Positions 4,451-24,760 of a stretch of DNA of 32,989 bases are shown piece after piece. Location: the NCBI GenBank assembly GCA_024404275.1, contig JAKSQG010000001.1:3851-36839 (forward strand). The letters are read 5' to 3'. Under the pieces are notes generated by a model. That model did no database searches, was not told the origin of the DNA, and saw only the letters and a program-made list of their open reading frames with translations. The first letter of the stretch is position 1. Every line of letters begins with the position of its first letter. The position numbers were made by a program, and so were the translations under genes. The stretch comes from Clostridia bacterium (GTDB taxonomy: Bacteria; Bacillota; Clostridia; Christensenellales; Aristaeellaceae).

Positions 4451-4470
4451 AGTGTTTTCCTCCCTTTTAC

Positions 4471-4510
4471 GGAAAAGGCAGGAAGCCCTGAAACACAGGT
4501 GCTTCCTGCC
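4471..4510 (-). terminator. Intercistronic hairpin with short U-run between permease and GH1 gene (attenuator/partial terminator)
   Basis: GGCAGGAAGC(4477-4486) / GCTTCCTGCC(4501-4510), a 10-bp perfect stem with a 14-nt loop, followed on the minus strand by TTTTCC. Confidence 0.4.
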
Positions 4511-4525
4511 GTGCTTGATACTATA

Positions 4526-7347: not shown

Positions 7348-7391
7348 GCCATTAGCCACCTTCTCTTCGTGTTGGTCAAATTCCGTTCTTC

Positions 7392-7492
7392 AGGCTGAAA
7401 GATTCAGCCTCTCACCGGAACTCCCGCATGCGGAAGCTCCGGCGAGAGGCCGTTTTTTCTCCGTGGGGGAGCCGCGAAATCCGCGGCTCCCC
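7392..7492. other. Cluster of three stem-loops in the binding-protein/permease intercistronic spacer
   Basis: AGGCTGAA/TTCAGCCT (7392-7410). GCCTCTCACCGGA...TCCGGCGAGAGGC (7408-7450, one mismatch, inner palindrome CCGCATGCGG). GGGGAGCCGCG/CGCGGCTCCCC (7466-7492, 11-bp perfect stem). Confidence 0.5.
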
Positions 7493-7532
7493 GCACGAAG
7501 CGATTCAGTTATCTGAGTGGATCCTCTGATAA

Positions 7533-8786
7533 TCAGAAGGACAGCTCGGGATGCTTTTCGAGCATCACGGTGTAGAAGTTGTTCCAGGCGGTGTCCAGAT
7601 CAACGATACCGTTGAAGTAGTCATGCATGGCGTTCTGGATCTGCTCGGTGCAGGTCTGATCATACATGGTGGACTTGGCGCGGTTGATGTTCTGAGCATT
7701 GGCCAGCAGCACGCTCACGTAGTTCTGGCCGCCCAGGAACGCATCACCGAAAGCGGGATCGTTGGCGAAGCCTTCCATAACGGAAACGCTGTTGGTGAAG
7801 TCGGACTTTTCCTTGACGATGGTGGTCAGAACGTCCTTGTCGATGGTCATGGTCTTGATGATGTCAGCAACCAGAGCTTCGTTATCGGTGCCCTTGGCAG
7901 CGCAGATCCAGGTGCCGCCCCAGGAGAAGCCAACGGGGCCTTCGCAGACAGCCCAGTCACCGGCAGTACCGGCGCCCATGGAGTAGTCGAAGAACCAGGC
8001 GGGTCCGAAGTAGCAGAAGACCTTGGAATCATGAGCCATGTCAGCGGACCAGTCGGGATCCCACAGCTTGGTGCCGTTGTTCCAGCCGTTTTCGGTGAAC
8101 TTTTTGGTCTGGGCGATCCAGGCTTCCACGGCGGCGTCCTTCTGAATCTTGCCGTCGACGACCCAGGAGGTGCTCATGTTGTCGGTGAAGGTACGATAGG
8201 TGTCATCATAACCGGAAACCATCTTGATGCCGGCATCGGCCATCATTTCGGCCACAGCTTCGAAGGACTCCCAGTCGCACAGCATTTCCTGCACAGTCTC
8301 GGGATCATCGGTGCCCAGCACTTCCAGAGCCAGGTCACGGCGATAGATCAGACCGGCGGGGCAAGCCTGCCAGGACAGACCCTTGATCTTGCCTTCGGCG
8401 TCAGTCATGATGTCCAGGGTGTACTGATACATATCGGCGATGTCTTCGGCGGTGATGCCCAGATCGGCGATATCATAAGCCAGATCCATGTACTTCACAG
8501 CGTAGTCGGCTTCCACCAGGAAGATGTCGACCTTCTTGTCGGCGGGAGCAGAATCCTGAGCCTGCAGAGCGGCATCCAGCTTGTTCTGATAGTTGTTCTC
8601 GGCGTTGGGCTCTTCGATCCAGTTGACGGTCACGCCTTCGGGAACGGTGTAGTAATCGGTGAAGCGGGTCTTCCATTCATCGTTCCAAACGAAGATGTTC
8701 AGAACAGTTCCTTCGTCAGCGAAGGCCACAGCGCACAGGCTGAGCATCATCGCAGCGATCAGGAGAGCGGAAATGAGTTTCTTCAT
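7533..8786 (-). CDS. ABC transporter extracellular solute-binding protein (sugar, family 1)
   Basis: 417 aa with signal peptide MKKLISALLIAAMMLSLCAVAFA (possible lipobox LSLC). Sits upstream of the two permeases. RBS AAGGAGG. Stop TGA. Confidence 0.8.
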   Translation of the reverse strand: MKKLISALLIAAMMLSLCAVAFADEGTVLNIFVWNDEWKTRFTDYYTVPEGVTVNWIEEPNAENNYQNKLDAALQAQDSAPADKKVDIFLVEADYAVKYMDLAYDIADLGITAEDIADMYQYTLDIMTDAEGKIKGLSWQACPAGLIYRRDLALEVLGTDDPETVQEMLCDWESFEAVAEMMADAGIKMVSGYDDTYRTFTDNMSTSWVVDGKIQKDAAVEAWIAQTKKFTENGWNNGTKLWDPDWSADMAHDSKVFCYFGPAWFFDYSMGAGTAGDWAVCEGPVGFSWGGTWICAAKGTDNEALVADIIKTMTIDKDVLTTIVKEKSDFTNSVSVMEGFANDPAFGDAFLGGQNYVSVLLANAQNINRAKSTMYDQTCTEQIQNAMHDYFNGIVDLDTAWNNFYTVMLEKHPELSF

Positions 8787-8825: not shown

Positions 8826-9836
8826 TTATTCATGATTGGGGGCTGCCAGCGTCTGCCCAGGCAGGTAGCAGCAGGGAACGGTCTCGATCTCGGGGAAGGT
8901 CACTTCCGGGTGTTCCACCAACTCGATCAGTTTTTGGGCTGCCGCTGCACCGATGGCTTCGGTATCCTGACGGATGGTGGTAAGCGCCGGGCGGGTTCGC
9001 TGCAGCAGCGGCACACCGTCGTAACCGACAATGGAGATATCCTACGGAATGCGCAGACCTTTTTCACGTATGGCTTCAATGCCGCCCAGTGCGGCGTAGT
9101 CGTCCGGCATGAGGATGCAGGTGGGCGGTTCGGGAAGCTCCAGCATTTTTCTTACCTGATGACGGGTGCGAGCCGGGTTGTGATACTCGCTTTCGATCAG
9201 ATAACCATCGGGAATGTCCAAACCGGCATCTATCATCGCCTTGCGGTAGCACTTTACGCGGGCTGTGGAGACTGATTTTTCCGCGCCGTGGACATAGCCG
9301 ATCTTTTTGTGACCCATTGCAAGAATGTTCTGCATCAGCAGCTCCATACCCTGACGGTTGTCAGAACGGACGCAGCTGCGTTCCTGAAACAGATAGTCAA
9401 CGGTGACCAGCGGAATCTCGCTGCGTAAAAGCTCCTGTACCTGCGGATCTTCAAAGTGGCAGCATACGATGCATACACCGTCAAATTTCCGGCTCCGGCA
9501 ATGCTCCAGGATGGTACTGCCTGTGCTTGTTCTTTGGGAAATGAAGGTGATGTCATATCCGCGGGCTTCAGCCCCCATGCGGAACGCCTGCAGGATGGGA
9601 GAAAAGTAGCTGTGCGTCAAACCGCTTTCGGAGTCATCCGCATAGAGAACGCCAAGCGTGTAGGTTTTGCCGCTTCTGAGTCCCCGCGCAGCAGCATTGG
9701 GGTTATATCCCAGCTGAGCGGCCTTTTCCTTAACAATCCTGCGGGTCTCTTCATTCACGTCCGAGTAACCATTCAGGGCTTTGCTGACCGTGGATACCGA
9801 TAATCCGCAGGCAGCGGATAGTTCCTTGAGTGTCAT
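8826..9836 (-). CDS. LacI/GalR-family transcriptional regulator containing one in-frame TAG (9042-9044)
   Basis: Track pieces 9042..9893 and 8826..9014 are in the same frame. Direct reading gives ...AIREKGLRIP-TAG-DISIVGYDGVPLLQRTRPALTTIRQD... N-terminal HTH MTLKELSAACGLSVSTVSKALNG starts at ATG 9836. Read-through length is 336 codons, normal for the family. Stop TAA. Confidence 0.85.
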
Positions 9837-9856
9837 CTGAACTCCGCTTCCGTTTC

Positions 9857-9868
9857 TAAATCGTTTTC
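9857..9868. promoter_or_regulatory. Imperfect LacI-type operator upstream of the lacI-family gene
   Basis: Minus-strand GAAAACGATTTA matches 10 of 12 positions of the perfect palindrome at 10001-10012. It lies 9 nt downstream of the putative -10 box. Confidence 0.4.
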
Positions 9869-9877
9869 GTTGAACAT

Positions 9878-9906
9878 AATATAACACACTCAAAATCAGA
9901 ATGCAA
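9878..9906 (-). promoter_or_regulatory. Putative sigma-A promoter of the lacI/ABC operon
   Basis: Minus strand: TTGCAT (9906-9901), 17-nt spacer, TATATT (9883-9878). Confidence 0.45.
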
Positions 9907-9961
9907 GTACTTTTTTTATTTTTTTTGATAATATTTCAACCATTTTTTCCTTTATAGATAG

Positions 9962-9990
9962 TTGATTTATCCTTTCCAATGCATTATAAT
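9962..9990 (+). promoter_or_regulatory. Putative sigma-A promoter of the GH94 phosphorylase gene
   Basis: TTGATT (9962-9967), 17-nt spacer, TATAAT (9985-9990). Confidence 0.55.
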
Positions 9991-10000
9991 AACTCTATTC

Positions 10001-10012
10001 GAAAACGTTTTC
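10001..10012. promoter_or_regulatory. Perfect palindromic LacI/CcpA-type operator
   Basis: GAAAACGTTTTC is a perfect 12-nt palindrome with a central CG, 10 nt downstream of the TATAAT box. It resembles the cre/LacI-family core consensus AANCGNTT. Confidence 0.6.
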
Positions 10013-10079
10013 TTTGAGAAAAGGCACTCTTCGCACCGTGCTTTTCGGTTATTCTTTCTTATCAGGAGGTAAAACCACA

Positions 10080-12503
10080 GTGGAATACGGTCATTTTGAC
10101 GATGCCGCCCGGGAGTATGTCATCACCCGGCCGGATACGCCTTCTCCCTGGATCAACTATCTGGGCAGCGAAGCCTTCTTCACCCTGATGAGCAATACCG
10201 GCGGCGGCTATTCCTTCTATAAAGATGCCCGCATGCTGCGCATCACGCGCTATCGCTATAACAACGTACCGCTTGACGCCGGCGGTCAGTATTTCTACAT
10301 TAACGACCATGGCACCGTCTGGACTCCCGGCTGGATGCCCGTACGCACCCCATTGGACCATTATGAATGCCGTCATGGTCTTGGCTACAGCAGTATCACC
10401 GGCGAGAAGAACGGCCTTTGTGTCAAGGAAACAGCCCTCGTCCCGCGCGGAAAGAATGCCCTGGTCACCCGGGTCGAACTGAAAAACGCTTCTGCTGAAA
10501 GCAAATGCTTCACCCTGACCAGCTTTGTGGAATTCTGTCTGTGGAATGCCCAGGACGATTCCACCAACTTCCAGCGCAATTTTTCTACCGGCGAGGTTGA
10601 AGTGGAAGGCAGCGCCATTTATCATAAGACCGAGTATCGTGAACGCCGCAACCATTATGCAGTGTATGCCGTCAATGCCCCGATCGACAGTTTTGAGACG
10701 GACCGTGACAGTTTCCTCGGCGCATACCGAGGATTCAACGATCCCCGTGCCGTTCTGGAAGGTGCAGAGAACAGCATGGCCAGCGGTTGGGCTCCCGTGG
10801 GCAGCCACCAGCTGAAGGTATCCCTCGCTCCTGGAGAAGAGCGTTCCTTCATCTTTGTGCTGGGCTATTGTGAAAACCCGCAGGAAGAAAAGTTCATCGC
10901 TCCCAATGTGATCAACAAAGCGCCCGCTGATGCGCTGCTCGCCGCTTTCCGTACCGATGATGATTTCGAAGCCGCTCTGGCGGAAATGAAAGCATACTGG
11001 AACGAGCTGCTTTCCATCTATCAGGTGCAGACCGGTGAATCCCGTTTCGATCGCATGGTCGGCATCTGGAATCAGTACCAGTGCATGGTCACCTTCAACA
11101 TGTCCCGTTCCGCCAGCTATTATGAAAGCGGCATCGGTCGAGGCATGGGTTTCCGTGATTCCACGCAAGACCTGCTCGGCTTTGTTCACCTGATTCCCGC
11201 CCGTGCCCGTGAGCGTTTGCTGGACATCGCCGCCACCCAATTCCCCGACGGCAGCGCTTATCACCAGTATCAGCCGCTGACCAAGCGCGGTAACTTTGAC
11301 GTTGGTTCCGGCTTCAACGATGACCCGCTGTGGCTCATCTTCGGCGCGGCTGCGTACATCAAGGAGACCGGCGATCTGTCGATCCTGCACGAATCCGTCC
11401 CCTTCGATAATGACGAATCGCTGGCGCAGCCTTTGATGGAGCATCTTCGCCGTTCTATCCACTATACTCTGGAGCACCTCGGTCCGCACAAGCTGCCGCT
11501 GATCGGCCGTGCGGACTGGAACGACTGCCTCAACCTGAATTGCTTCTCCGCTACGCCCGGTGAAAGCTTCCAGACGACCGCCAACTTTGAAAGCGGCATT
11601 GCCGAAAGCCTCTTTATCGCCGGCATGTTCATCGGTGTCTGTCCCGACTACGAAAAGCTGTGCCGTCTCTATGGCTGGAACGAGGAAGCCGATCAGGTCG
11701 CCGGTTGGAAGAAAGCCATGACCGAAGCCGTTCTGAAAGATGGCTGGGACGGCGAATGGTTCCTGCGTGCCTACGATGCCTACGGCAACAAGATCGGTTC
11801 TGACAGCTGTGAAGAGGGCAAGATCTTCATTGAACCGCAGGGCTTCCTGGTTATGGCCGGCGTTGGCGTTCAGGAAGGCTATGCTGTACGTGCCATGGAT
11901 TCCGTCCGTCATCACCTGCTCGGCGAGCACGGCGTGGCCATCCTGACGCCGCCGTACACACGTTATCATCTGGAACTTGGTGAAATCAGCTCCTATCCCC
12001 CGGGATACAAGGAGAATGGCGGCATTTTCTGCCACAACAACCCCTGGATCGTCATCGGTGAAACGGTGCTGGGCCGCGGCGGCAACGCATATGATGTGTA
12101 TGTACGCACCTGCCCCGCCTTCATCACCGATCAGAAGCTGCACCACACTGAACCGTATGTATACAGCCAGATGGTAGCCGGTCCCTATGCGCCGCGCAGC
12201 GGTCAGGCCAAAAACAGTTGGTTGACCGGTACCGCTGCCTGGACCTTCTACGCCGCCAGCCAGTCCATTCTTGGCATCAAGCCTGACTATGACGGACTGA
12301 TGATTGATCCCTGCCTGCCTGGAAATCTGACGGATGTGTCCATTACCCGCCGTTTCCGTGACAGCGTATATCATGTGCATATTGTCAACAAAGCCGGCAA
12401 CACCAAAGGTCAAATGAGCATGACCATGGACGGCATCGCCGTCAATGGCAATGTGCTGCCTGCCGTTCCCGGAGAGCATCAGGTAGAAGTCATCATGGCC
12501 TGA
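10080..12503 (+). CDS. cbp: GH94 cellobiose phosphorylase (or closely related beta-glucan disaccharide phosphorylase)
   Basis: Motifs typical of characterised cellobiose phosphorylases: [62 protein letters not shown]. The track start TTG 10014 is replaced by GTG 10080, 9 nt after AGGAGG, giving 807 aa. Stop TGA. Confidence 0.9.
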
Positions 12504-12518
12504 AAGGCATAACAAAAC

Positions 12519-12562
12519 GCGTCCTGCACTCTGTCAGTTTCAGAGGCAGGACGCACTTTTTA
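12519..12562. terminator. Bidirectional intrinsic terminator between convergent cbp and mscS genes
   Basis: GCGTCCTGC-A-CTCTG ... CAGAG-GCAGGACGC stem followed by ACTTTTTATT on the + strand. Confidence 0.65.
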
Positions 12563-12576
12563 TTCTGTTTCTTATC

Positions 12577-13389
12577 TTACTTATCCAGGTGGACATCCAT
12601 CTGCGGATAAGGAATGGTGATGTTCTTGTTCTGGAAGGCCTTTGTCATCTCCTCCAGCAAATCAAAGTGCACATCCCAATAATCCGCCGTCTTTACCCAT
12701 ACACGCAGCGTGTATACCAACGCACTGTTATCCTGTTTGGAGAGGCGTACAAAAGGTGCCGGATCACGCAATACCTTTTTGTGGTTCTGTGCCACGGTCA
12801 TAATGGTCTCTTTGACCACCTGAACCGGAACATCGTATCCCGCGCTGAATGTCATATCCACGCGGCGGTTGCCGTTATTGGAAAAATTGGTAATTGTCGC
12901 GCTGGTGATGCTGCCGTTTGGCACCGTGATGGTTTTGTTATCCGGGGTATTGATGATCGTGGAAAACAAACCGATTCCTTTGACGGTGCCGCCGATGCCG
13001 GTTACCTCCACATAATCCCCCACATGGAACGGATGCAGCGCCAGCAGCATCAGACCGCCGGCAACATTGGACAGAGCTCCTTGCATGGCCAGACCGACGG
13101 CTACGCCGCAGGAAGCCAGCACGGTGATGAGGCTTGCAGTATCAACGCCGATGATGCCGCAAACGATCATAATCAGCAGCGTATATACAACAATGCTGAC
13201 GCTGCTTTGCAAAAATCCCCTCAGGTTGGTATCCAGCTTATCAAAAAATTTGGCGTCCCCGACCCATTTGGTCAGCCATCTGGCAAAGCGAACGCCGAGA
13301 AAGACAGCAACCGCAGCTTCCAGAAGCTGCAGCCCCACCGTCATCACAAAAGTGGCGGCCGCCTGCGCCATCGAATCAAAAAAGCCCAT
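12577..13389 (-). CDS. mscS: Small-conductance mechanosensitive channel (MscS family)
   Basis: TM helices followed by the MscS beta-domain region (LALHPFHVGDYVEVTGIGGTVKGIGLFSTIINTPDNKTITVPNGS). Start moved to ATG 13389, 6 nt after GGAGGG. The track's longer 13599 start overlaps a terminator and the upstream gene. Stop TAA. Confidence 0.85.
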   Translation of the reverse strand: MGFFDSMAQAAATFVMTVGLQLLEAAVAVFLGVRFARWLTKWVGDAKFFDKLDTNLRGFLQSSVSIVVYTLLIMIVCGIIGVDTASLITVLASCGVAVGLAMQGALSNVAGGLMLLALHPFHVGDYVEVTGIGGTVKGIGLFSTIINTPDNKTITVPNGSITSATITNFSNNGNRRVDMTFSAGYDVPVQVVKETIMTVAQNHKKVLRDPAPFVRLSKQDNSALVYTLRVWVKTADYWDVHFDLLEEMTKAFQNKNITIPYPQMDVHLDK

Positions 13390-13534
13390 CGAATGCCCTC
13401 CACGGAAAGAATGAACAAAGCACGTTTCTATGCCCTTCTGTTGTAACATAAAAATTCCGTCAGAGCAAGTCATTTTATGAAGTAAAAAGGCTTGTTTCTG
13501 TTTTTTCGCAAAGATGCCTTCTGATATATCGAAA

Positions 13535-13563
13535 CAGGCCTGTCCCGACAAAGGACAGGCCTG
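13535..13563 (-). terminator. Hairpin downstream of the 13583..14029 ORF
   Basis: CAGGCCTGTCC / GGACAGGCCTG, an 11-bp perfect stem with a 7-nt loop, followed on the minus strand by TTTC. Confidence 0.5.
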
Positions 13564-13582
13564 CGCATAAAAGTATGGCTGA

Positions 13583-14029
13583 TTATTGAATGACGCCAAA
13601 GGCCATCAGGAAATCACGCACTTCGTTGAACTCGGCTTCGTTCGCCGGCATAGCCATTCCATATTCCGCAAGAACGGAGCAGAACTGATCATAAGTGACC
13701 AAGCTCGGTGTATAACTGCCATCCGCCTGCATGACGCTCATCTTCAGCATTTCGCCGCTTTCCGCCTTCAAAAGCAGTTCGTTCAGTGTGGACGGAAAAG
13801 CATCGTCTGCTGCTCCCGATGTATTTGCGTCAGCAGAAGCCGCCGCGGATGCAGAAGCATTTCCGGAAGAAACGATTTTCAGATCGGCAGGAAGCTTGTC
13901 AATTTCCACCCACATGACCGGGCGCACGCCAATGCTGCCGCAGCCGCCCTGCATGATAGAAGCACCCTTAAAGATGTTGCTCTGATAAACCATCGTCATG
14001 CAATACGTATCGCCCGCATCGCGAAGCAC
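13583..14029 (-). CDS. Hypothetical protein; possibly a 5'-truncated remnant
   Basis: The ORF starts at a GTG inside a WVLRD...GVRPVMWV-type motif. The same frame stays open upstream (PDITKKKLREPIAFHHCFAYNINAFDSYVHW) with no ATG/GTG/TTG back to a TGA. An Ala/Ser-rich linker and a C-terminal domain without a recognisable family follow. Stop TAA. Confidence 0.35.
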   Translation of the reverse strand: MLRDAGDTYCMTMVYQSNIFKGASIMQGGCGSIGVRPVMWVEIDKLPADLKIVSSGNASASAAASADANTSGAADDAFPSTLNELLLKAESGEMLKMSVMQADGSYTPSLVTYDQFCSVLAEYGMAMPANEAEFNEVRDFLMAFGVIQ

Positions 14030-14144
14030 CCAATGAACGTACGAATCGAAGGCGTTGATATTATACGCAAAACAATGATGAAAAGCAATCGGTTCACGTA
14101 GTTTCTTTTTTGTAATATCTGGGTGTATATTTTCCCGTATACAT

Positions 14145-14181
14145 CACTCTACTGTCGGTAGAGTGGCATTTTTTCTCTTTT
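14145..14181 (+). terminator. Orphan intrinsic-terminator-like hairpin on the + strand
   Basis: CACTCTAC-TGTCG-GTAGAGTG followed by GCATTTTTTCTCTTTT. No + strand CDS lies upstream of it. Confidence 0.4.
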
Positions 14182-14254
14182 GACAGGAGAATCGGCATTC
14201 TTTGATGCGGAGATACCAAGTCCGCAGTTCGTAGAACACGAAACCGCGTTCTAC

Positions 14255-14263
14255 TGCTATACT
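14255..14263 (+). promoter_or_regulatory. Possible extended -10 promoter element for the SGNH hydrolase gene
   Basis: TGCTATACT (TGn + TATACT) about 29 nt upstream of ATG 14292. RBS GGAGGG at 14279-14284. Confidence 0.35.
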
Positions 14264-14291
14264 GGTTTTACAACAAACGGAGGGAAAGAAC

Positions 14292-15035
14292 ATGCTTAAC
14301 AATCAGCTTTGCATTTTTGGCGATTCCATTTATTGCGGTGTCACCTTTGACGAAACCTTTGGACGCTATACCCTTTGCCGCAATACCTTTGATAAGAAAC
14401 TTCGTTCCTTCGGCGTGACCGTCCGCAACAACGCCCGTCCCGGCTGCACCACCGACATCGCGCTGAATCATCTGGATGAAGCGCGTGTACTTCCCGGAGC
14501 TGTTTGCCTCATTTCCTTTGGCGGCAATGATTCTGATCTTGAGTGGGAAAAGGTCGCAGCCGATCCAGACCATTATCACGAGGGAAAAGTCTCCCTGGCG
14601 CAGTTCAAGGAAAACATACGGGAACTGATTCTTTTTGCAAGGGAGAAACAGATGCAGCCGGTCGTGTGCACACCCCTTCCCGTGGCAGCGGAACGCTATT
14701 TTGAAACTTTCTCCAAAGGACTTGACCGCAGTGCCCTGATGCGCTATCTGCATAACACCGAATACATCTATCGTTGGCAGGAGCGTTACGCGCTGGGAGC
14801 ACAGCAGGTTGCCTGCAGCATGAATTGTGAAGTGTTTGACCTGCGCAGTATCTTTCTTTACCAACGGGACTTTTCAGCGCTCATGTGCCGGGACGGCATC
14901 CACCCGAGCGCAGCCGGATATACGCTGATGACGCAAGCCTTCTGCAGTTTCTGGGGAGTCGAAAGCGCATCTGATACACAGTCACAGCGTGTGTTTCATC
15001 CCTTCTTCAACCCCGCATCCGCCTTCTCCTTCTGA
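14292..15035 (+). CDS. SGNH/GDSL-family hydrolase
   Basis: 247 aa with block I FGDSI, block III GGND and block V DGIHP. Stop TGA. Confidence 0.8.
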   Translation: MLNNQLCIFGDSIYCGVTFDETFGRYTLCRNTFDKKLRSFGVTVRNNARPGCTTDIALNHLDEARVLPGAVCLISFGGNDSDLEWEKVAADPDHYHEGKVSLAQFKENIRELILFAREKQMQPVVCTPLPVAAERYFETFSKGLDRSALMRYLHNTEYIYRWQERYALGAQQVACSMNCEVFDLRSIFLYQRDFSALMCRDGIHPSAAGYTLMTQAFCSFWGVESASDTQSQRVFHPFFNPASAFSF

Positions 15036-15046
15036 AAGAAAATAGC

Positions 15047-15088
15047 AAAAGGGCCACCGTTCAAAACGATGGCCCTTATTTTTGTTTG
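15047..15088. terminator. Bidirectional terminator between the SGNH gene and ftsZ
   Basis: AAGGGCCA(15049-15056)/TGGCCCTT(15070-15077) followed by ATTTTTGTTTG on the + strand and TTGCTATTTTC on the minus strand. Confidence 0.65.
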
Positions 15089-15090
15089 TA

Positions 15091-16425
15091 TTACTTTTTG
15101 CGGCGCAGATAGGCAGGAACACCCAGATCGTCCTTTTCAACGCCGGAGGGCTGCTGAGGAGCGGCCACAGGGGCGACAGGAGCCTGCTGAACGGGAGCCG
15201 CAGCAGGAGCTGCGGGAGCCTGTACAGGAGCCGCCACAGGGCTCTGGAAGGCAGGCGCCGTAAAGGTGGGAGCAGTATAGAAAGGCGTCTGAGGCGCGGG
15301 CTGCTGAGCGGCAGGACGCGCGCTGCCGGTGGCAAAGGTATCCGGGTCAAAGCTCATGGGAGCGGGAGCGCTCTCATAAGGATTGACACTGGCATTTGCG
15401 GCACCATAAGGAGCGGAGACCGGACGGGTGCCGGGCTTGCGCTTGGGGGCCGCTCCGAAGGAATTCTTATCAAAGCCGGTGGCAATCACCGTGATGCGAA
15501 CTTCTTCGCCCAAGGATTCATCCACATTGGCGCCAAAGATGATGTTGGCTTCGCTGTCGGAAGCCTGCATGATCAGGCTGGCCGCCTCATTGACATCCAT
15601 GATGTTGAGGTCGCTGCCGCCGGACACATTGATCAGCACAGAGCGGGCGCCATCGATCTTGGTCTCAAGCAGCGGGCTGGAAATGGCTTCCTTGGCGGCA
15701 TTGACCAAACCGTTTTCGCCGCGGCCCACGCCGATGCCCATATGGGCCATGCCGCCGGCTTCCATGACCGTGCGGACATCCGCAAAGTCCAGGTTGATGA
15801 TGGCGGGAACGGCGATGAGATCGCTGATGCCCTGAATGCCCTGACGCAGCACGTCATCAGCCTTGCGGAAGGCTTCCAGCATCGTGGTGCCCTTGCTGAC
15901 CACCTGCAGCAGACGATCATTGGGGATGACCACCAGCGTATCCACATTCTGCTTCAGCTCATTGATACCGGCATCGGCATTCTTCATGCGCTGCTTGCCT
16001 TCAAACAGGAAAGGCTTGGTCACCACGGCAATGGTCAGGCAGCCCAGCTCACGGGCGACCTGAGCCACCACAGGAGCCGCGCCCGTACCGGTGCCGCCGC
16101 CCATACCGGCAGTAACAAACACCAGGTCGGCGCCCTTCAGCACCGCTTCGATATCTTCGCGGCTTTCCTCGGCGGCACGGCGGCCCACATCGGGGACGGC
16201 ACCGGCGCCCAGACCCTTGGTCAGCTTTTCGCCGATCTGAATCTTGGTTCCGGCCTTGGAAAGGTTCAGAGCCTGATGATCCGTGTTGACGGCAATAAAT
16301 TCAACACCGCGCAGCCCGGCTTCCACCATGCGGTTGACAGCGTTGCTGCCGCCGCCGCCGCATCCGACAACACGGATAGCGGCAAAACCCTTGTTATTTT
16401 CATTTTCCATCTGGACTTCCAGCAT
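15091..16425 (-). CDS. ftsZ: Cell division GTPase FtsZ
   Basis: Motifs [13 protein letters not shown] and [15 protein letters not shown], a long Pro/Ala-rich linker and the C-terminal peptide [22 protein letters not shown]. Stop TAA. Confidence 0.97.
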
Positions 16426-16456
16426 ATTAGCCTCCCGATTTCTGTCGTCGTTCTTC

Positions 16457-17638
16457 TCAGCCGCCGAAAAGATTTCTCAGCATGCCGCGAAGTCCGCGAG
16501 GTTGATTGGTCATTTCAGAATTCTCAAGCACAGTATCCATCAGACCCAGCACGCTGGTATACAGCGGACTGGACAGCTTGTTGGTCTTGCGGGGGAAATC
16601 CCGTACCGTGCGATCCAGCTTTTTGCTCATCATTTCACGCGCGCCGCGGTTGAGCGCCAGGCCGCCGCCCGTAATGAAAACCACGCTCTGGTTGGAAAGG
16701 CGTACGCCGCTGCCCTTGATGGTGTCATGGATCTTTTCGCAGATCTCTTCCACGCGGGGCTCCAGCACTTCCGCCACTTCCTCACGGGTGAAGGTGCGCG
16801 TCACATTATCGCGATCCGGCACATCATAGGTTTCTTCCTCATCGGCGTAGGTACCGAAGGTGTAGGAGCGTTTGATGGTCTCGGCGGATTCCAGCGGAAT
16901 CTTGAGGCCATATGCCAGATCGGCAGAGATATAGCCGCCGCCCACAGGCAGCACCTGCTGATAAATGATGGCGTCGCCTTCGATCACCATGACCTCGGTA
17001 TTCAGGTAACCGATATCCACCGCCACAGCGGTATTGACTCTCTCCTCGATGGGCACATACATCATGGACTGCCCCACGGAGGTAGAGAAGAAACTCGCCA
17101 CCTGCACATTGATGGCGCGGAAGCGTTCGCTTACATCGTTCAGGAAAAACTCATCCGCCACCACATAGGATACTTTGGCGCGCAGTGAATTGCCGCGCAC
17201 GCCCATGGGCTCCAGCGTCTTTTTGCCTTCATCCACCTTGAACCAGGCGGGACCGCGATGAATGATTTCACCCTGAACAGCACCCAGCTGGCGGTTGGCC
17301 TCATTAAAAAGCTCCCTGACGTCATTCTGGGTCACATGCGGATCGGTCCCCTGCAGGTCTACCCGTGCTTCCACCGTATAAACGCGGCAGAATTCGCCGG
17401 GCACGCCGACGCTGACTTCACGGATGCGGATGCCCGACTGCTCCTCCGCCTTATGAACAGCCTCGCTCATGCGGCCAATCAGATTATCGGGATCATTCCA
17501 CTGACCATCGGTATAGCCGGCATATTCCACATAACCGGCACCGAGTATATCACAGTTGCGCTGGCGATTGCCGCTGTCCGCCACGAGCACACTGATCTTG
17601 CTCGTTCCAAAGTCGACCGCCGTAAGCGTGTTCTTCAT
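16457..17638 (-). CDS. ftsA: Cell division protein FtsA (actin-like ATPase)
   Basis: 393 aa, starting [20 protein letters not shown], with [10 protein letters not shown] and ITGGGLAL motifs. Located immediately upstream of ftsZ. Stop TGA. Confidence 0.9.
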
Positions 17639-17725
17639 AATCGTTCATCCCCTGTTCGTTGCAAAAGGTGCCCTCCGTTACTGTCATGGGCAGGCAGAAT
17701 ACACCTAATAATCATAGGATACTTC

Positions 17726-17754
17726 ATTTTACCCTTTTTACGGCGGAATGGCAA
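17726..17754 (-). promoter_or_regulatory. Putative sigma-A promoter upstream of ftsA-ftsZ
   Basis: Minus strand: TTGCCA (17754-17749), 17-nt spacer, TAAAAT (17731-17726), inside the 168-bp ftsQ-ftsA spacer. Confidence 0.5.
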
Positions 17755-17806
17755 GCGTTTTTAAGGCATATATGTAATTTTTTTGGACGAATGGACTATT
17801 TTTTCG

Positions 17807-18541
17807 TCACCGGGGCAGATAACTGGCCTCGCCCGGCACAGTCGCCTCAATGGTGCCGCCCTGAAGCCCTCTGGCGCGAAGTTCCATCAGTACAGCCCGC
17901 ACCGTACCCAGCTTGCCCCGAAGGGACTGCGCGTTGCCGATCCGGATGGTATGGCCATCCCGGGTGGTCAATGTCAGGCTTTCTGTGCGGGACGCGTCCA
18001 TTGAGGCAATTTCCGTGACCCAACCCTGCGCCCGAAGCTCTTCCACCACGGCTGTTACGCTGTCAAACTGCCCTTCTTCCATGCAGACAACCCGGGAATG
18101 CTCCCTGATATCACGGATGTTGAGCCCGTTCACATAGATGCAGCCGTTATCCTCATCCAGGACATTGCTGACAGAAAGCACCACGCCGGAGGAGGAGGTG
18201 ACAAACCGCCGTCCCCCACCCCCTTCCTGGATGTTCAAAGCCGGTGTCTGCTCCTGTACATACAGGACGACTGTATCCGGCCAGATCTTTTCCAGGCTTT
18301 GATAGACATAGTGATAATCGCTGTTGATGCCCTTTCGGATGGTGTTCTCATCGACATCAAAATAGCTCATGCCTGTTTTGAGACCGCTGAGGTTATACAC
18401 CTTAAGCAGATTTTCATCACTGACACCGGCCAGCAGCACATGCTGAATGACCGCCACTTTTTCGTGTATGACAAAGGCGGCTGAAAGCAGCAATACTGCC
18501 GCCACAGCCGCGATCATGATGGTTTTCATTCCCTTTCGCAT
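17807..18541 (-). CDS. ftsQ: Cell division protein FtsQ/DivIB (short form)
   Basis: 244 aa with a single N-terminal TM helix followed by a POTRA-like region (VYNLSGLKTGMSYFDVDENTIRKGI...VVLYVQEQTP). dcw synteny. RBS GGAGGG. Stop TGA. Confidence 0.8.
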   Translation of the reverse strand: MRKGMKTIMIAAVAAVLLLSAAFVIHEKVAVIQHVLLAGVSDENLLKVYNLSGLKTGMSYFDVDENTIRKGINSDYHYVYQSLEKIWPDTVVLYVQEQTPALNIQEGGGGRRFVTSSSGVVLSVSNVLDEDNGCIYVNGLNIRDIREHSRVVCMEEGQFDSVTAVVEELRAQGWVTEIASMDASRTESLTLTTRDGHTIRIGNAQSLRGKLGTVRAVLMELRARGLQGGTIEATVPGEASYLPR

Positions 18542-18556
18542 CGGGATCCCTCCGCT

Positions 18557-19933
18557 TTATTCCAGGGCATTGACCAATTGTTTAAAGATTCTGCCGCGCT
18601 GTTCATAATCGCTGAACTGATCAAAGGAAGCACACGCCGGGGATAAAAGCACATTTCCGCCGTTCACCGCCAGCTTTCTGCAGAGCTGCACGGTTTCGGG
18701 ATAATTTTCAGCGTGATAGAGCGCCGTGTATCCCGCCTTGACCAGTGAAGCCTCGATCTGCGGAGCGGTCGCGCCGCACAGCACGATCTTGTCAATCATA
18801 CCGCTCTTCATGATCTCCTCGGACAGCGCGTCGAAGGAAACATGCTTGTCCGATCCGCCGAGAATCAGCACCGTGGGCACGCGCATGGTCTGCACTGCCT
18901 TGATGGTGCTGTCCACATTGGTGCCCTTGCTGTCATTGTACCACTTGACGCCGTCCAGCTCACGCACAAACTCAATGCGATGCTCCACACCCTTGAAGGT
19001 CTTGAGCGCCATACGGATCACCGGTGCCGGTACGCCCGCGGCAAAAGCCATCATGGCCCCCGCCAGCGCGTTCTACAGGTTATGCGGTCCGGGGATATAG
19101 ATTTCTTCCGTTGCACAGATGAGGGTTTCCTCGCTCTTCCAGCGGATGAACATTTTTCCATCATGGACAAAAGCGCCGTTCTCCACTTCGTGCTTGGAAC
19201 TGAACCAGGCAACCTGGGAAGGAATCTTCTCCGCCATCGCGCGGCACCAGCTGTCCTCATAGTTGAGCACCGCCGTATCCTTTTCGGTCTGACGATCAAA
19301 AATGTGCTGCTTCACAGCGGCATAATTGTCCATCGTGTAATGACGGTTCAGATGGTCCTCCGTCACGTTCAGCACAGCCGCCACCGTGGGATGGAAGGTA
19401 TCCGTGGTTTCCAGCTGAAAGCTGGATACCTCCGCCACCAGCACATCCTCCGGCTTGCTCAGCATAGCCGCTGCCGACATCGGATAACCGATGTTGCCGG
19501 CCACATAAGCGATCTTGCCGAAGCCGCGGAAGATCTCCCCCAGCAGCGACACCGTGGTGGTCTTGCCGTTGGTGCCGGTCAGCGCCACCAGCGTTCCCTC
19601 CGCCAGCTGCGAAGCAACCTCGAGCTCGCCGGTCACGGAAATGCCCTTCGCCTTTGCCGCAAGTACAATGGGAGCATCAATGGCGATGCCGGGGCTGATG
19701 AGCAGCACATCGGTCTTGTCCAGCAGTTCTTCCGGCTTCTGACCGAGATACCATTCGCAGGGCAGGGCCTTGAGCGTACGGATGCTCTCCCCCAGCTGTT
19801 CTTCCGTCTTGCGGTCATTCAGCATGGGAACAGCGCCAAAGCGGCACAACAGTTCTGCCACAGCGACACCACTGCGCGCCATGCCGATGATCAGCACCCT
19901 TTTCCCTTGCCAATACTGTTTCAAATCGCTCAT
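18557..19933 (-). CDS. murD: UDP-N-acetylmuramoylalanine--D-glutamate ligase MurD containing one in-frame TAG (19073-19075)
   Basis: Track pieces 19073..19951 and 18557..19054 are in the same frame. Direct reading gives ...EEIYIPGPHNL-TAG-NALAGAMMAFAAGVPAPVIRMALKTFKGVEHRIEF... P-loop GTNGKTTT is present. Start ATG 19933 follows GGAGGATAAG. Read-through gives 458 codons. Stop TAA. Confidence 0.9.
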
Positions 19934-19947
19934 CTTATCCTCCGGAA

Positions 19948-20973
19948 TCAAAACCAGGCCAGCACGCTCAGCACGGCAATAACGCTGAGTACCAGCGTAA
20001 CCGCCGCGTACATCATCACAATCTGATTCTCATTCATGCCGCTCATCTCAAAGTGATGATGGATGGGCGTCATCTTGAAAATGCGCTTGCCATGGGTCAG
20101 CTTGTAGTAGGTTCTTTGCATGATGACAGAAACAGAGCTCATCACGCAGGTAAAGCAGATCAGCAGCAGCAGGAATTCCAACCGCAGCAGCACAGCAATG
20201 CCAACCATGACGCCGCCGATGAACATGCTGCCGGTATCGCCCATAAAAATCTTGGCAGGATGGCGGTTGAATTTGAGGAATCCCAGACACGCGCCCGTCA
20301 GTGCAAAAGCCACAGCGGCACTGCATTCACCCGCGTTGAGCAGGCTGCTTCCCGCGGATGCCATCAGCAAGCCCATTGCACCGAATGCAATCATGCCCAC
20401 CGCGGTCACGCTGGACAGAATGCCGTCAATGCCATCCTGCAGGTTGGCACTATTGGTCATGAACAGCACTGTCAAGGTAAGCAGCGGGATATAGAACACA
20501 CCCAGATTCCAGGTACTGTGGGTAAAGGGCAGAATGACCTCGCTGCCGAGCGTAAAATACGCCCAAACAGAGAACAACAGACCCACGATCAACTGACCCG
20601 CAATCTTTTGCTTCGGCTTCAGTCCCTCGTGATTCTTTTTGACATCCTTGATATAGTCATCGGTAAAGCCCACAGCCATGGAACCGATGGCCACAAACAG
20701 CAGCGCCCACAGGGTATTCTGCAGCGACCAGAAGGGTACCGCAGCACCTTTTTTACGCATGAGGCACACCACCAGTACGGTAATCATCACCGTGACAGGG
20801 CCTGTGACCACACCGCCCATGTTGGGCGTGCCCTTTTTGTTGAGGTGGCTCTGCGGTCCCAGTTCGTACATGGTCTGGCCGAATTTGAGGGCACGCAGTT
20901 TTTTGATACACACCGGCATCAGAAGCATCATCAGCGCAAAGCTCATTACCACGGCTTCAGCGGCATACAACAT
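19948..20973 (-). CDS. mraY: Phospho-N-acetylmuramoyl-pentapeptide transferase MraY
   Basis: 341 aa polytopic membrane protein with motifs GTPNMGG, DDYIKD, NLQDGIDG and PIHHHFE. RBS AAGGAG. Stop TGA. Confidence 0.93.
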   Translation of the reverse strand: MLYAAEAVVMSFALMMLLMPVCIKKLRALKFGQTMYELGPQSHLNKKGTPNMGGVVTGPVTVMITVLVVCLMRKKGAAVPFWSLQNTLWALLFVAIGSMAVGFTDDYIKDVKKNHEGLKPKQKIAGQLIVGLLFSVWAYFTLGSEVILPFTHSTWNLGVFYIPLLTLTVLFMTNSANLQDGIDGILSSVTAVGMIAFGAMGLLMASAGSSLLNAGECSAAVAFALTGACLGFLKFNRHPAKIFMGDTGSMFIGGVMVGIAVLLRLEFLLLLICFTCVMSSVSVIMQRTYYKLTHGKRIFKMTPIHHHFEMSGMNENQIVMMYAAVTLVLSVIAVLSVLAWF

Positions 20974-20985
20974 AACAGCAGCTCC

Positions 20986-22440
20986 TTATTGCTTGATTTC
21001 CTGCAAAAGTTCTTTTACGATCTGCTTTTCGTCAAAGGGATATTTCTTTCCACAGATCTCCTGATAGGTTTCGTGTCCTTTGCCCGCCAGAATGACGATA
21101 TCATTGGGCTGCGCGGTTTCCAGCGCGTGACGTATGGCGGCACGGCGGTTTTCAATCACCGTATATGGCCCCGTCGTCTGCTTGATTCCCTCTTCAATGC
21201 TCTGAAGAATCGCAAAGGGATCCTCACTGCGGGGATTGTCGCTGGTCAGCACACAGTAATCGGCCATTCTGCCGCCGATTTCGCCCATGATGGGGCGTTT
21301 ACCATGGTCGCGGTCACCGCCGCAGCCAAACACAGCAATGACCCGTCCTTTTGCAAACTGACGGACCGCTTTCAGGATATTTTCCAGCGCATCGGGAGAA
21401 TGTGAATAATCAAGCAGCACCTTGTAGGGAGTATCGGTGTCCAGCATCTACGCGCGTCCGGGAACTGCCCTGACCGCCTCCAGACCCGCGGCAATGGCTT
21501 CCAACCCGACGCCAAGTGCGGCCGCGGCCGAAGCCGCGGTCAGCGCGTTATACACATTAAAAATGCCGGTCATGTGCATATGCACATCACACTCACCAAG
21601 CTCGCCCATATGCAAGCAGAAGGCTACACCCTGCTCACTGATCTCAATATCACGCGCATAGCAATCCGCATTTGCGCGGATACCGAAAGTATGATAGGGC
21701 AGCACCGTATCACGGAGAATCTGCGCCGTGGTCTCCTCATCGGCATTCAGCACAGCATTGCGTGCATAAAAAGGCGTGAAGAAGATCTTCTTCGCCTCAA
21801 AATACTGCTCCATGGAACCGAAATAATCCAGATGATCCTGCGACAGATTGGTATAGCAGGCTACATCATACACCACGCCGTCCACACGGTGCATGGCAGT
21901 GGCATGAGCGGAAACCTCCATCACAACAGCATCCACCTGCTCATCCGCCATGCGGCGCAACAGGGACTGCAGCTCATCCGCCTCGGGCGTTGTCATATTG
22001 CCATGAATGGGACGATCGCCGATCATGTTGCCCGTCGTACCGATCAGGCCGCACTTCATACCGGCATGTTCCAGAATGGATTTGATCAGATAACTGGTCG
22101 TCGTTTTGCCCTTGGTGCCGGTGATGCCGACCATTTTCATACTGCGGGACGGATGACCGTACAACGCGGCACAGATGGGACCAAAGGCTTCACGCATATT
22201 TTTTACGCGGATCTGCGGCACATCGAGCGGCAGAAAGCGTTCCACTGCCAACGCCACAGCGCCGTTGGTCACTGCCTGCGCAGCAAAATCATGCGCATCA
22301 AAACGAGCGCCGGAGATACAGCAGAACAAGCCGTTTTCATTCTTCACACGGCTGTCCATCACCGGCAGTTTTACATCGGTATCGCCCTTCCGTTCCAGAA
22401 TCAGGGAACCGCATTCCTTTTCCAGATCGCTGAGTTTCAT
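20986..22440 (-). CDS. murE: UDP-N-acetylmuramoyl-tripeptide synthetase MurE containing one in-frame TAG (21448-21450)
   Basis: Track pieces 21448..22440 and 20986..21447 abut in the same frame: ...LEAVRAVPGRA-TAG-MLDTDTPYKVLLDYSHSPDALENIL... P-loop GITGTKGKTTT is present. Read-through gives 484 codons. Stop TAA. Confidence 0.92.
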
Positions 22441-22474
22441 GTCGGACCTCTTTCCGTCTGTTTGCGCACAAGCA

Positions 22475-22510
22475 GGCTGATGAATCTGCCTTATCTCGTG
22501 TTCATCAGCC
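22475..22510 (-). other. Stem-loop in the murE leader
   Basis: GGCTGATGAA (22475-22484) / TTCATCAGCC (22501-22510), a 10-bp perfect stem with a 16-nt loop, about 35 nt upstream of the murE ATG. Confidence 0.4.
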
Positions 22511-22521
22511 GCTTGATTCAG

Positions 22522-22556
22522 AAAAAAACAGCCGACCGGTGCCTTGCAGGCACCGG
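22522..22556 (-). terminator. Intrinsic terminator after the ftsL-like gene
   Basis: CCGGTGCC/GGCACCGG (22536-22556) followed on the minus strand by TCGGCTGTTTTTTT. Confidence 0.7.
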
Positions 22557-22571
22557 AAGGCGCATCAATGA

Positions 22572-23069
22572 TTACTTTGAAGCCTGCATGCTGGCGCCGT
22601 TCAGTGTGGTGCCGGGCCGTGTCGCAGGAGCATAGATATAATTGACTTCCATGGCATCCGCCTTGGTCATACCAAGATTCACAGCAAGCTTATCGATCAC
22701 ATTTTCCGCCGTTGCGTCGGCAATCTGCTGCTTCATGCCGTTGATCTGCCTCTACGCCGATTCTACCTCGGCATACAATGTACGGCCATCCTGAAGCAGA
22801 TGACCCTTTTTTTGCACCGCCCCGGCATAGAACATCAGCATTACCACTGCCAGCAGTCCTGCCGCAATCAAAAGCAGACGCAGCGGAACACGCCGTGCCT
22901 CGGCGGGACGGTTGGGCGCGACATAGGTGCTGCGCTCATCCATATCGCAGCACACATCGCCGCCCGGCATATAGACGTTTGAGCGTATGGTCATTTTTCT
23001 GCGGTCGGCGTTCCAGTAGCCTGCCTTTGTGTATGTATGCGTGCTGCCGGCCAGAGACATATGAATCAT
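22572..23069 (-). CDS. ftsL: FtsL/DivIC-like septum formation protein containing one in-frame TAG (22752-22754)
   Basis: Track ORF 22752..23069 ends at TAG. The same frame continues for 59 codons to TAA 22572-22574: ...TLYAEVESA-TAG-RQINGMKQQIADATAENVIDKLAVNLGMTKADAMEVNYIYAP... One TM helix (LRLLLIAAGLLAVVMLMFYAG), a coiled coil and the ...LGM... tail typical of FtsL. Start could be ATG 23069 or 23060. Confidence 0.7.
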
Positions 23070-23084
23070 ACCCTTTCTTTATTA

Positions 23085-23603
23085 TTATCTGGCGGCGATC
23101 TCCGCCTCAAAACTCAAAATATCGGGAGTTTCTTCCAGGATCTTTTCTTCTTCAAGGTCGGCTTCTTCCTGCTTCTTGATGCAGATATGAGAGCCGCAGC
23201 CCGATACATCAACGTCCCGGGCATCCTGCAAAAAGCGGGTGCGCAGTTTCTGCGGCAGCAGGATACGTCCCTGACCGTCGCACTCACAATCCTCGTAGGT
23301 ATACTTTGTAAAAAGATTGATGATTTTGATCATCCGCATATCCTTCTCCGCCAGCTCCAGCAGAGAGCAGTAGTACAGCTCCCATTCGCGGCGGGGATAT
23401 ACGGCAATGGCCTTGAAATCAGGCGTCATGCAGATGCAGAAGGAATCTCCCAAAGCATTTCTGAAAGGCGCGGGAACAATTAATCTTCCCTTTGCATCCA
23501 ATCCGTGCTGGTAGTCGCCGCGGAAGCCGCCACGCAGCAGATGGGCGTATTTCTGCAGAAGAGCATTCTGCCGCTCGCCCAGCTGTTCCAGCTTTTCGCT
23601 CAC
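23085..23603 (-). CDS. mraZ: Transcriptional regulator MraZ (with ~30-aa N-terminal extension)
   Basis: GDYQHGLDAKGRLIVPAPFR and the second half-repeat CDGQGRILLPQKLR. The nearest start upstream of the first motif is GTG 23603 after AAAGGTGGTGG (alternative GTG 23636). Ends with a triple TAA. Confidence 0.8.
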   Translation of the reverse strand: MSEKLEQLGERQNALLQKYAHLLRGGFRGDYQHGLDAKGRLIVPAPFRNALGDSFCICMTPDFKAIAVYPRREWELYYCSLLELAEKDMRMIKIINLFTKYTYEDCECDGQGRILLPQKLRTRFLQDARDVDVSGCGSHICIKKQEEADLEEEKILEETPDILSFEAEIAAR

Positions 23604-23664
23604 ACGCCCACCACCTTTCCGGTTTAAATCCACCACTTGGCTCTACTTTTTGGGATTTGCAACC

Positions 23665-23693
23665 ATTATAACCCACCAAAATCGGGAACGCAA
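23665..23693 (-). promoter_or_regulatory. Putative sigma-A promoter of the dcw cluster (P-mraZ)
   Basis: Minus strand: TTGCGT (23693-23688), 17-nt spacer, TATAAT (23670-23665). Confidence 0.5.
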
Positions 23694-23985
23694 CTTTTCA
23701 GTTATTACGATTTTTTAATATTTTGCATCTTGTGCGAAAATTTGTTCGCTTATTTGAAAATGTCTTTTTTACAATCTGTCTTTTAACAAAATCCTGCGTT
23801 TTATAAATTCGTCATTTTAACCATATTTTTGCTTTCGGTTTTGGGCATTATTGCCTTCTAACTGTTACAAAAACTTAATATATTGTTTTTTACAACTTTT
23901 GGGACGAGTTTTTCCCTGATTCATGGCTGTTTTCTGCGATTTTGTACCGCAATCTCCACATTCTGCGTTTTCCACTCCACCGACA

Positions 23986-24014
23986 CAAAAAAAGAGCGGC
24001 CTTTCGGCCGCTCT
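23986..24014 (-). terminator. Intrinsic terminator after the metallophosphoesterase gene
   Basis: AGAGCGGCC/GGCCGCTCT, a 9-bp stem with a 4-nt loop, followed on the minus strand by TTTTTTTG. Confidence 0.8.
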
Positions 24015-24040
24015 TTGCCACTATTTCATATTTTTGAAGT

Positions 24041-24760
24041 TCAAATCTGGTTCTGTTCCCCACTTTCGGGTTCATCGATTCTCTTCAGCCTGAATCCAAG
24101 GGCGTCGCAAGACACCAGATGATAGCGAACCCCGCCTTGCACGCCGCTGAAGCCCGTGCGGATGGACGCGCCATGAAGGTGTCCATACACGCAATCGCGC
24201 ACACCATAACTGCTCAGCAGTTCGGAGACCTCTGTCGCTTCTCCATTTTCCGCCACCGGCGGATAATGAGTCATGGCTACCAGCGGTGCATCGGCATCCA
24301 GCGATCTGGCTTTGTCCAGCGACATTTTGAGCCGCATCAGTTCGCGCCGGTAGAGCCGCACATTTTCGACGTCCTTCTCACTGGACGGAAGCGTCCAGCC
24401 GCGGGAGCCGCAGAACAGCACGCCATTCAGTCTGACAGCGTCATTCTGTACCACGACCATCCCCGGTCCGACAATCTACCGTACCCTTGTCAGCGAACTC
24501 CACCAGTAGTCATGGTTGCCGCGAAGCATCACTTTCGTGCCGGGCAGCTCTGCAATCTCTTCCAGATCGTTCCGGGCATGCTCAAGCTGCATCGCCCAGC
24601 TGATATCGCCGGGAATCAGCACAACATCTTCTCCGGTCACTCGTTCGCGCCAGTCTGTGCGGATCTTGTCCCAGTGCCCTTCCCAGTGGGAACCGAACAC
24701 ATCCATCGGTTTATCGTCTCCCCCGGGGAGATGCAAGTCGCCAATGGCATAGATACTCAT
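24041..24760 (-). CDS. Metallophosphoesterase (calcineurin-like) containing one in-frame TAG (24476-24478)
   Basis: Track pieces 24476..24760 and 24041..24460 are in the same frame: ...GNHDYWWSSLTRVR-TAG-IVGPGMVVVQNDAVRLNGVLFCGSRGW... Motifs GDLHL, GDISW, GNHDYW and GHLH span both pieces. Read-through gives 239 codons. Stop TGA. Confidence 0.85.

Follow-up and report, generated by a model that had tools for sequence, protein, structure and literature searches.

Evidence for a probable reading of UAG as glutamate in a Christensenellales-like lineage of gut and rumen Clostridia

We analysed a 32,989-nucleotide stretch of the metagenome-assembled genome (MAG) GCA_024404275.1 (Clostridia bacterium, contig JAKSQG010000001.1, positions 3,851 to 36,839; hereafter the window), in which five genes, murD and murE among them, are each interrupted by a single in-frame TAG codon. 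Comparison with related sequences indicates that UAG is most probably not a terminator in this Christensenellales-like lineage of gut and rumen Clostridia but is read as glutamate (Glu, E). This reading covers both a full reassignment of the codon and its efficient suppression alongside release factor 1 (RF1). A first-pass annotation made from the letters of the window had proposed either sense reassignment of UAG or obligate amber suppression, and the proposal is supported by the recurrence of the TAG codons, by selection on the sequence downstream of them, by their alignment with Glu and by the missing TAG stops. Within the sequence covered, some 33 kb from this genome and around 20 kb from each relative, 13 in-frame TAG sites were verified in 10 genes of the window species, a sister species and two relatives. 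These genes are conserved, otherwise intact and under selection, and at some of the sites one strain or sister species has TAG where another has GAG.

In-frame TAG codons in intact genes

The window has a G+C content of 54% and its genes lie nearly all on the minus strand. Each of the five TAG codons (Table 1) shares its frame with the open reading frames (ORFs) on either side; positions and frames were re-read on the reverse complement and agree with the first-pass annotation, as do the gene lengths obtained on read-through. Neither that annotation nor our own reading found a frameshift or a further stop in any of the five genes. The earlier remark that conserved motifs continue past the TAG is borne out by Pfam, whose domains span or flank the codon in four of the proteins: Peripla_BP_3 (172-329) runs across it in the LacI-family regulator, as does Metallophos (1-197) in the metallophosphoesterase, the MurE codon falls inside Mur_ligase_C (328-455), and in MurD Mur_ligase_M precedes the TAG while Mur_ligase_C comes after it. 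A Pfam search with the fifth, a small membrane protein, returned no match. Its earlier name, ftsL-like, holds as far as its position and a homolog in the relative L001 (36% identity over 132 residues) go, these being its only basis, and finds no backing in Pfam.

Table 1 Positions of the five TAG-bearing genes of the window and of their in-frame TAG codons
Feature	Position	Strand	Length on read-through	Stop	Pfam domains, or place of the TAG
LacI-family regulator gene	8826..9836	-	336 codons	TAA	LacI, Peripla_BP_1, Peripla_BP_3
LacI-family in-frame TAG	9042..9044	-			codon 265
murD	18557..19933	-	458 codons	TAA	MurD-like_N, Mur_ligase_M, Mur_ligase_C
murD in-frame TAG	19073..19075	-			codon 286, motif HNL-X-NALA
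murE	20986..22440	-	484 codons	TAA	Mur_ligase_M, Mur_ligase_C
murE in-frame TAG	21448..21450	-			codon 331, motif VPGRA-X-MLD
Small membrane protein gene at ftsL position	22572..23069	-	165 codons	TAA	
FtsL-like in-frame TAG	22752..22754	-			codon 106
Metallophosphoesterase gene	24041..24760	-	239 codons	TGA	Metallophos
Metallophosphoesterase in-frame TAG	24476..24478	-			codon 95

Two Logan contigs (L081 and L117, from SRR27361835) match the window at 95.9% DNA identity over 13.9 kb and keep all five TAGs (the lacI codon in L117; those of murD, the ftsL-like gene and the metallophosphoesterase gene in L081). At least five independent contigs, drawn from NCBI, ENA and Logan, divide MurE at the same codon into pieces of 330 and 153 amino acids (aa). 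Differences between the window and L081 are mostly synonymous on both sides of the TAGs, with 108 synonymous and 16 nonsynonymous upstream and 54 and 9 downstream. Gene by gene, the synonymous and nonsynonymous counts are 38 and 2 upstream and 21 and 1 downstream in murD, and 48 and 7 upstream and 11 and 2 downstream in murE; downstream of the codon they are 7 and 1 in the ftsL-like gene, 15 and 5 in the metallophosphoesterase gene and, against L117, 15 and 4 in lacI. The same holds for TAG-bearing genes of the sister species, i.e., 104 synonymous and 19 nonsynonymous differences between the RarA genes of L092 and L116, which both keep a TAG at codon 98, and 19 and 1 downstream of the TAG in a macro-domain gene of L118. 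The synonymous excess after the TAG therefore implies that the parts beyond it are translated and under selection. The first-pass annotation had found five independent pseudogenes an awkward explanation, a doubt that proved justified, as the TAGs are inherited across strains and selection downstream equals that upstream. Judged by these comparisons, the TAG-bearing genes of the window are neither an artefact nor a product of gene decay.

A sequencing, assembly or binning artefact, e.g., a G-to-T error made systematically at GGAG or contaminating DNA from a TAG-recoded phage, is extremely improbable. The source is a MAG and the five window sites do share one local context, G-TAG-purine (GTAGA four times and GTAGG once, the same counts as in the first-pass annotation), but the same TAGs occur in sequences of 96% identity that were assembled independently, from other samples and with other pipelines, and 122 copies of GGAGA and GGAGG remain in the window, i.e., there was no wholesale conversion. 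Moreover, the genes belong to the chromosomal dcw cluster and to other housekeeping loci that are syntenic with those of relatives, and an artefact cannot remove TAG terminators. A methylation motif was rejected together with a systematic GGAG-to-GTAG error, because GGAGR is still abundant and independent assemblies agree.

It is also very unlikely that the TAGs are ordinary nonsense mutations that have left pseudogenes, or two polypeptides per gene made by re-initiation. NCBI does annotate MurE as two coding sequences, a "UDP-N-acetylmuramyl-tripeptide synthetase" of 330 aa (MCQ2452978.1) and a "hypothetical protein MJ136_00105" of 153 aa (MCQ2452977.1), an ATG lies immediately 3' of the murE TAG (21445-21453 reads GCG TAG ATG CTG), and truly decaying genes exist in related species. 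However, the remaining four of the five window TAGs have no adjoining start codon, and expression as split proteins was rejected for this reason and because it leaves the Glu specificity and the missing TAG stops unexplained. All 13 sites in the 10 genes are TAG, never TAA, TGA or a frameshift, whereas a random first-position G-to-T change would make a stop of GAG, GAA or GGA alike and GAG accounts for only 38% of these codons, so that five TAGs out of five have a probability of about 0.008. These sites are specific to Glu and persist in diverged strains, the ratio of nonsynonymous to synonymous change is low on both sides of them, and two of the genes, murD and murE, are normally essential. 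Nor would nonsense mutations account for the clade-wide absence of TAG terminators.

Genuine decay takes another form in one human-gut species (L104-L113), where a gene for a 661-aa protein without a Pfam domain adjoins ABC permease genes (e.g., L105 15283-17268, minus strand). Depending on the strain, this gene carries a TGA at codon 157, a TAA at codon 93, a 1-bp frameshift or a CAG-to-TAG change at codon 94, and it is intact in three strains, a pattern that looks like recurrent selection for loss. We rejected it as a further case of recoding, its lesion types being mixed between strains. The TAG-bearing genes show none of this variety, only TAG, and none of the marks of decay (several kinds of lesion, a relaxation of selection beyond them, their restriction to single lineages) was found in them.

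Two features of the surroundings of these genes may be added. The dcw cluster of the window (17807-23636; mraZ, ftsL-like, murE, mraY, murD, ftsQ-like, ftsA and ftsZ) is unusually compact, with no rsmH, ftsI/PBP (penicillin-binding protein), murF, ftsW or murG in between; the relatives L002 and L003 carry a PBP of about 715 aa between the ftsL position and murE. Large protein collections hold truncated fragments of the TAG-bearing genes as separate clusters.

TAG stops and in-frame TAGs among the relatives

Judged by MraY, the closest species are uncultured Clostridia of rumen and gut (L001, 71% identity; L002-L005, 61-63%), followed by a Christensenella-labelled MAG (L006, 55%). Homologs of RarA with 71-73% identity bear the names Christensenellales and Candidatus Ventricola. 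The sister species (GCA_045599485.1; L092 and L118) has about 92% DNA identity to the window.

Stops were counted with a gene caller trained on the codon usage of the window itself. It predicts 29 genes in the window, of which 13 end in TAA, 16 in TGA and none in TAG, in agreement with the first-pass counts. In 74 outgroup Clostridia loci, treated with the same caller, 93 of 526 stops (17.7%) are TAG, and at this rate the chance of finding none among 29 is 0.0035. The clade repeats the pattern, with no TAG stop in the sister species (0/26), in L001-L004 (0/52), in the L082/L104 human-gut species (0 of about 44), in the L093 species (0/10) or in L119, which lies on an 852-kb JGI contig (0/19). 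With L081 and the window included, the codon does not serve as a terminator in any of about 180 clade genes, about 33 kb of this genome among them, so that it is the clade, and not one genome alone, that has lost TAG terminators. TAG stops were met in L006, whose mraY ends in TAG, and in the Christensenellales assembly GCA_050952845.1 (2/13; RarA 71% identity).

Some apparent internal TAGs were set aside. Those called in outgroup loci (L026, L031, L045 and others) were read as adjacent same-frame genes joined across a real TAG stop, e.g., in L026, where the ORF spans the PBP and murE positions, and those in L119 and L120 come before the point where the gene truly starts. On both strands of the window, CTAG does not occur at all, against about 24 copies expected, and TTAG occurs only 7 times, against about 40; a link of these deficits to recoding was rejected, since they are the same in outgroup Clostridia that use TAG stops.

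The in-frame TAGs themselves are patchily distributed. The window has five and the sister species six of its own, L001-L003 have none in about 37 genes, and in several relatives TAG appears in no role at all. They also cluster, four of those in the window being confined to the stretch from 18.5 to 24.8 kb and three of those in the sister species to its rarA, while ftsZ, efp, argS and ABC transporter genes have none. This clustering suggests either tolerance only in genes of low expression (the expression level being assumed) or local import by recombination. In one species of the clade, two strains (L083 and L082) diverge just after an esterase gene, and the stretch concerned (L083 11900-20558), apparently an integrated mobile element, encodes a pair of large serine recombinases together with an HsdM fragment and small ORFs next to a tRNA-Arg(ACG). 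One of the ORFs there contains a TAG, 59 codons short of the end.

The residue at the TAG sites and its decoding

Scored by the nearest TAG-free homolog, the 13 sites correspond to Glu ten times, to aspartate (Asp, D) twice and to glutamine (Gln, Q) once, and at the nine sites where a close relative supplies the codon it is GAG seven times, GAA once and CAG once. This preference is not a mutational accident, because GAG makes up only about one fifth (about 20% by window codon counts) of the codons one step away from TAG. The first-pass annotation had offered Glu or Gln as the residue and had named convergence of the TAG columns on one amino acid as support for recoding; the homolog alignments converge in this way and narrow the choice to Glu.

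For the window genes, the murD site reads GAG in L001 and GAA in L002-L006 (E in all six of the closest species), and the murE site is E in the same six relatives, with GAG in L001, and in three solved MurE structures. The lacI codon is GAG in the sister species (L118) and E in the nearest full-length homolog (P0047), and the ftsL-like codon is E in the L001 homolog. At the metallophosphoesterase site the sister species (L092) has GAG, and L001-L006 have E, D, E, D, E and A. The sister species carries three of its own TAGs in rarA (L092 4000-5295, codons 98, 240 and 383), where the diverged relative L116 has TAG, GAG and GAA, respectively; RarA-98 is D in the nearest homolog and E or Q in others. 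A second metallophosphoesterase gene of L092 has its own TAG, facing D in homologs at 66% identity, and L118 has a TAG in lacI at a codon other than that of the window, which shows GAG there, and another in its macro-domain gene, where the window shows CAG. Among the remaining relatives, the metallophosphoesterase gene of L004 has its own TAG at a position where the window has E, and pepP of L099 (GCA_017432765.1) has a TAG where four conspecific assemblies have GAG in a protein that is otherwise identical, i.e., GAG and TAG are polymorphic within a species. The first-pass annotation had listed GAG in sister genomes as a finding that would speak against recoding. GAG was indeed seen there, but such exchanges are what synonymous turnover predicts, and with TAG retained among strains within a species they do not point to an error.

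Reading of UAG as something other than Glu, be it Gln through a supE-like tRNA-Gln(CUA), pyrrolysine (Pyl) or a near-cognate mixture after the loss of RF1, is in our opinion unlikely. Genome-wide UAG=Pyl is known in archaea, and near-cognate reading of UAG in RF1-free Escherichia coli gives mainly Gln, Tyr, Lys and Trp. If UAG were Gln, however, CAG-to-TAG transitions should dominate, CAG (258) being about as common in the window as GAG (286), and Pyl or mixed decoding predicts no preference for a single residue. The observed sites are Glu-specific and GAG-derived instead of being untied to any standard residue as expected of Pyl, with Glu in the nearest relative at 10 of 13, GAG at seven of the nine with close codon data and, in MurD and MurE, an E that all six close relatives share without exception.

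For the reading as Glu, a dedicated tRNA with the anticodon CUA, charged with Glu, would decode UAG, and its simplest origin would be a tRNA-Glu(CUC) with one anticodon change. RF1 would have been lost or would no longer compete effectively, leaving UAA and UGA to RF2. The order of steps could be that of codon capture, in which TAG stops vanish first across the clade and TAG then re-enters as a rare Glu codon through GAG-to-TAG changes, in genes presumed to be lowly expressed.

Several observations weigh against the Glu reading. ARAGORN, applied to the window and to some 45 loci of the clade, found no tRNA(CUA), and a six-frame search for the GGQ motif found no release-factor ORF in the window or in any fetched locus. 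TAG is very rare, with 5 occurrences in 9,763 window codons, or about 0.8% of the Glu-type codons (5/640). One site derives from CAG and not from GAG, and Q is tolerated at several sites in more distant homologs, which also counts in favour of a non-Glu residue. The preferred context G-TAG-purine is another such point: 9 of 11 sites follow a G (31% for GAG codons) and 10 of 11 precede a purine (59% for GAG codons). In E. coli, UAG is suppressed more readily when a purine follows it, and the bias may reflect an inefficient decoder or competition with RF1. Finally, one gene ends in TAG in L005 (1/22; 12415-13392, with a tail of 32 codons after the TAG) and one in the L098 species (1/11; 4220-8512, the same in L099-L101, with a 13-codon tail). 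In both, the conserved end of the gene coincides with the TAG and the tail is short and poorly coding, so the TAG is either a residual terminator or the start of a C-terminal extension created once TAG became readable. These two cases blur the edge of the clade, and some UAG termination may persist.

The tRNA and release-factor searches agree with the first-pass annotation, which had noted neither a suppressor tRNA nor a release-factor gene in the window. ARAGORN detects no tRNA gene of any kind in the window and only ordinary ones in the clade loci (Arg, Cys, Gly, Phe, Asp and Val, in L082 and L083). A scan of metagenome contigs for a tRNA-Glu-like anticodon arm with CUA (CACCKCCYTCTAAYGGMGGTAAC) gave one match, which lies inside a coding sequence and is no tRNA, and a scan of viral contigs with a shorter CUA-arm pattern gave two, neither of them a tRNA.

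Taking these points together with the reading of UAG as Glu, we consider it likely, if with somewhat less assurance, that a family-level clade of Christensenellales gave up UAG termination, presumably through loss of RF1, and that at least one lineage recaptured the codon as Glu in an early stage of codon capture. The recapturing lineage would comprise this MAG, GCA_045599485.1 and probably GCA_017432765.1 and L004, with the TAG-free relatives as apparent intermediates.

Implications and comparison with known codes

If true, UAG would for the first time be a sense codon for a standard amino acid in a natural bacterial code, and the genetic codes would gain a new entry. Species without any TAG and species with rare TAG=Glu both seem to be present in the clade, a natural series against which codon-capture and ambiguous-intermediate models could be compared. 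Gene callers and table predictors limited to tables 4, 11 and 25 will miss such a change, because it barely shifts coding density, and by inference completeness estimates and protein databases would be affected too. A host that does not terminate at UAG would also alter which phages and plasmids can express their genes, in habitats where TAG-recoded phages are common, and a natural pair of tRNA(CUA) and glutamyl-tRNA synthetase in an RF1-independent bacterium, both of them inferred, would be of interest for genetic-code expansion.

We found no report of bacterial UAG=Glu, or of any bacterial reassignment of UAG to sense, in the literature to mid-2026, within an incomplete coverage of journals. 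That literature holds bacterial stop reassignments of UGA only, sense-codon changes (Arg codons, ACA and CGG), a UAG=Pyl code confined to archaea and phages with TAG=Gln, and the Codetta paper likewise states that the known bacterial stop reassignments all involve UGA. In those bacterial codes (code 4, UGA=Trp; code 25, UGA=Gly), the change typically goes with loss of RF2 and a tRNA with the matching anticodon. Like the present case they are stop-to-sense changes confined to one bacterial clade, but the codon and the release factor are different ones. Assignment of a stop codon to Glu is known from eukaryotes, where peritrich ciliates (NCBI table 30) read both UAA and UAG (UAR) as Glu. Blastocrithidia (table 31) does the same (PMC12153298). 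The likeness lies in a stop codon set, UAG included, that is given to Glu; those codes are nuclear, however, take UAA and UAG together and involve eRF1 and eukaryotic tRNA-Glu, whereas here UAG alone is concerned, in a bacterium in which UAA still ends 13 of the 29 window genes.

Among prokaryotes, the archaeal Genetic Code 34, in which all TAG codons encode pyrrolysine, was stated by its authors not to have been observed in bacteria (Kivenson et al., bioRxiv 10.1101/2024.09.30.615893). It resembles our case as a genome-wide TAG sense codon in housekeeping genes that is easily missed, with coding density barely changed, and differs in its Pyl machinery and methylamine metabolism, as against Glu-specific sites here. 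TAG-recoded gut phages with code 15 (TAG=Gln) usually encode their own suppressor tRNAs (10.1101/2021.08.26.457843). They share the TAG sense codon and the ecosystems, but theirs are phage genomes in standard-code hosts and the residue is Gln, whereas the TAGs described here sit on a bacterial chromosome with housekeeping synteny (dcw cluster, argS, efp) and align with Glu, only 1 of the 13 sites matching Gln. A bacterial parallel for RF1 is engineered, i.e., RF1-free E. coli, in which UAG was assigned to an amino acid by means of a suppressor tRNA and TAG stops were removed from essential genes (Mukai et al. 2010, PMC3001078); genomically recoded strains belong here too. Such strains are synthetic, whereas the lineage described here would be its natural counterpart, with TAG stops removed across a whole clade.

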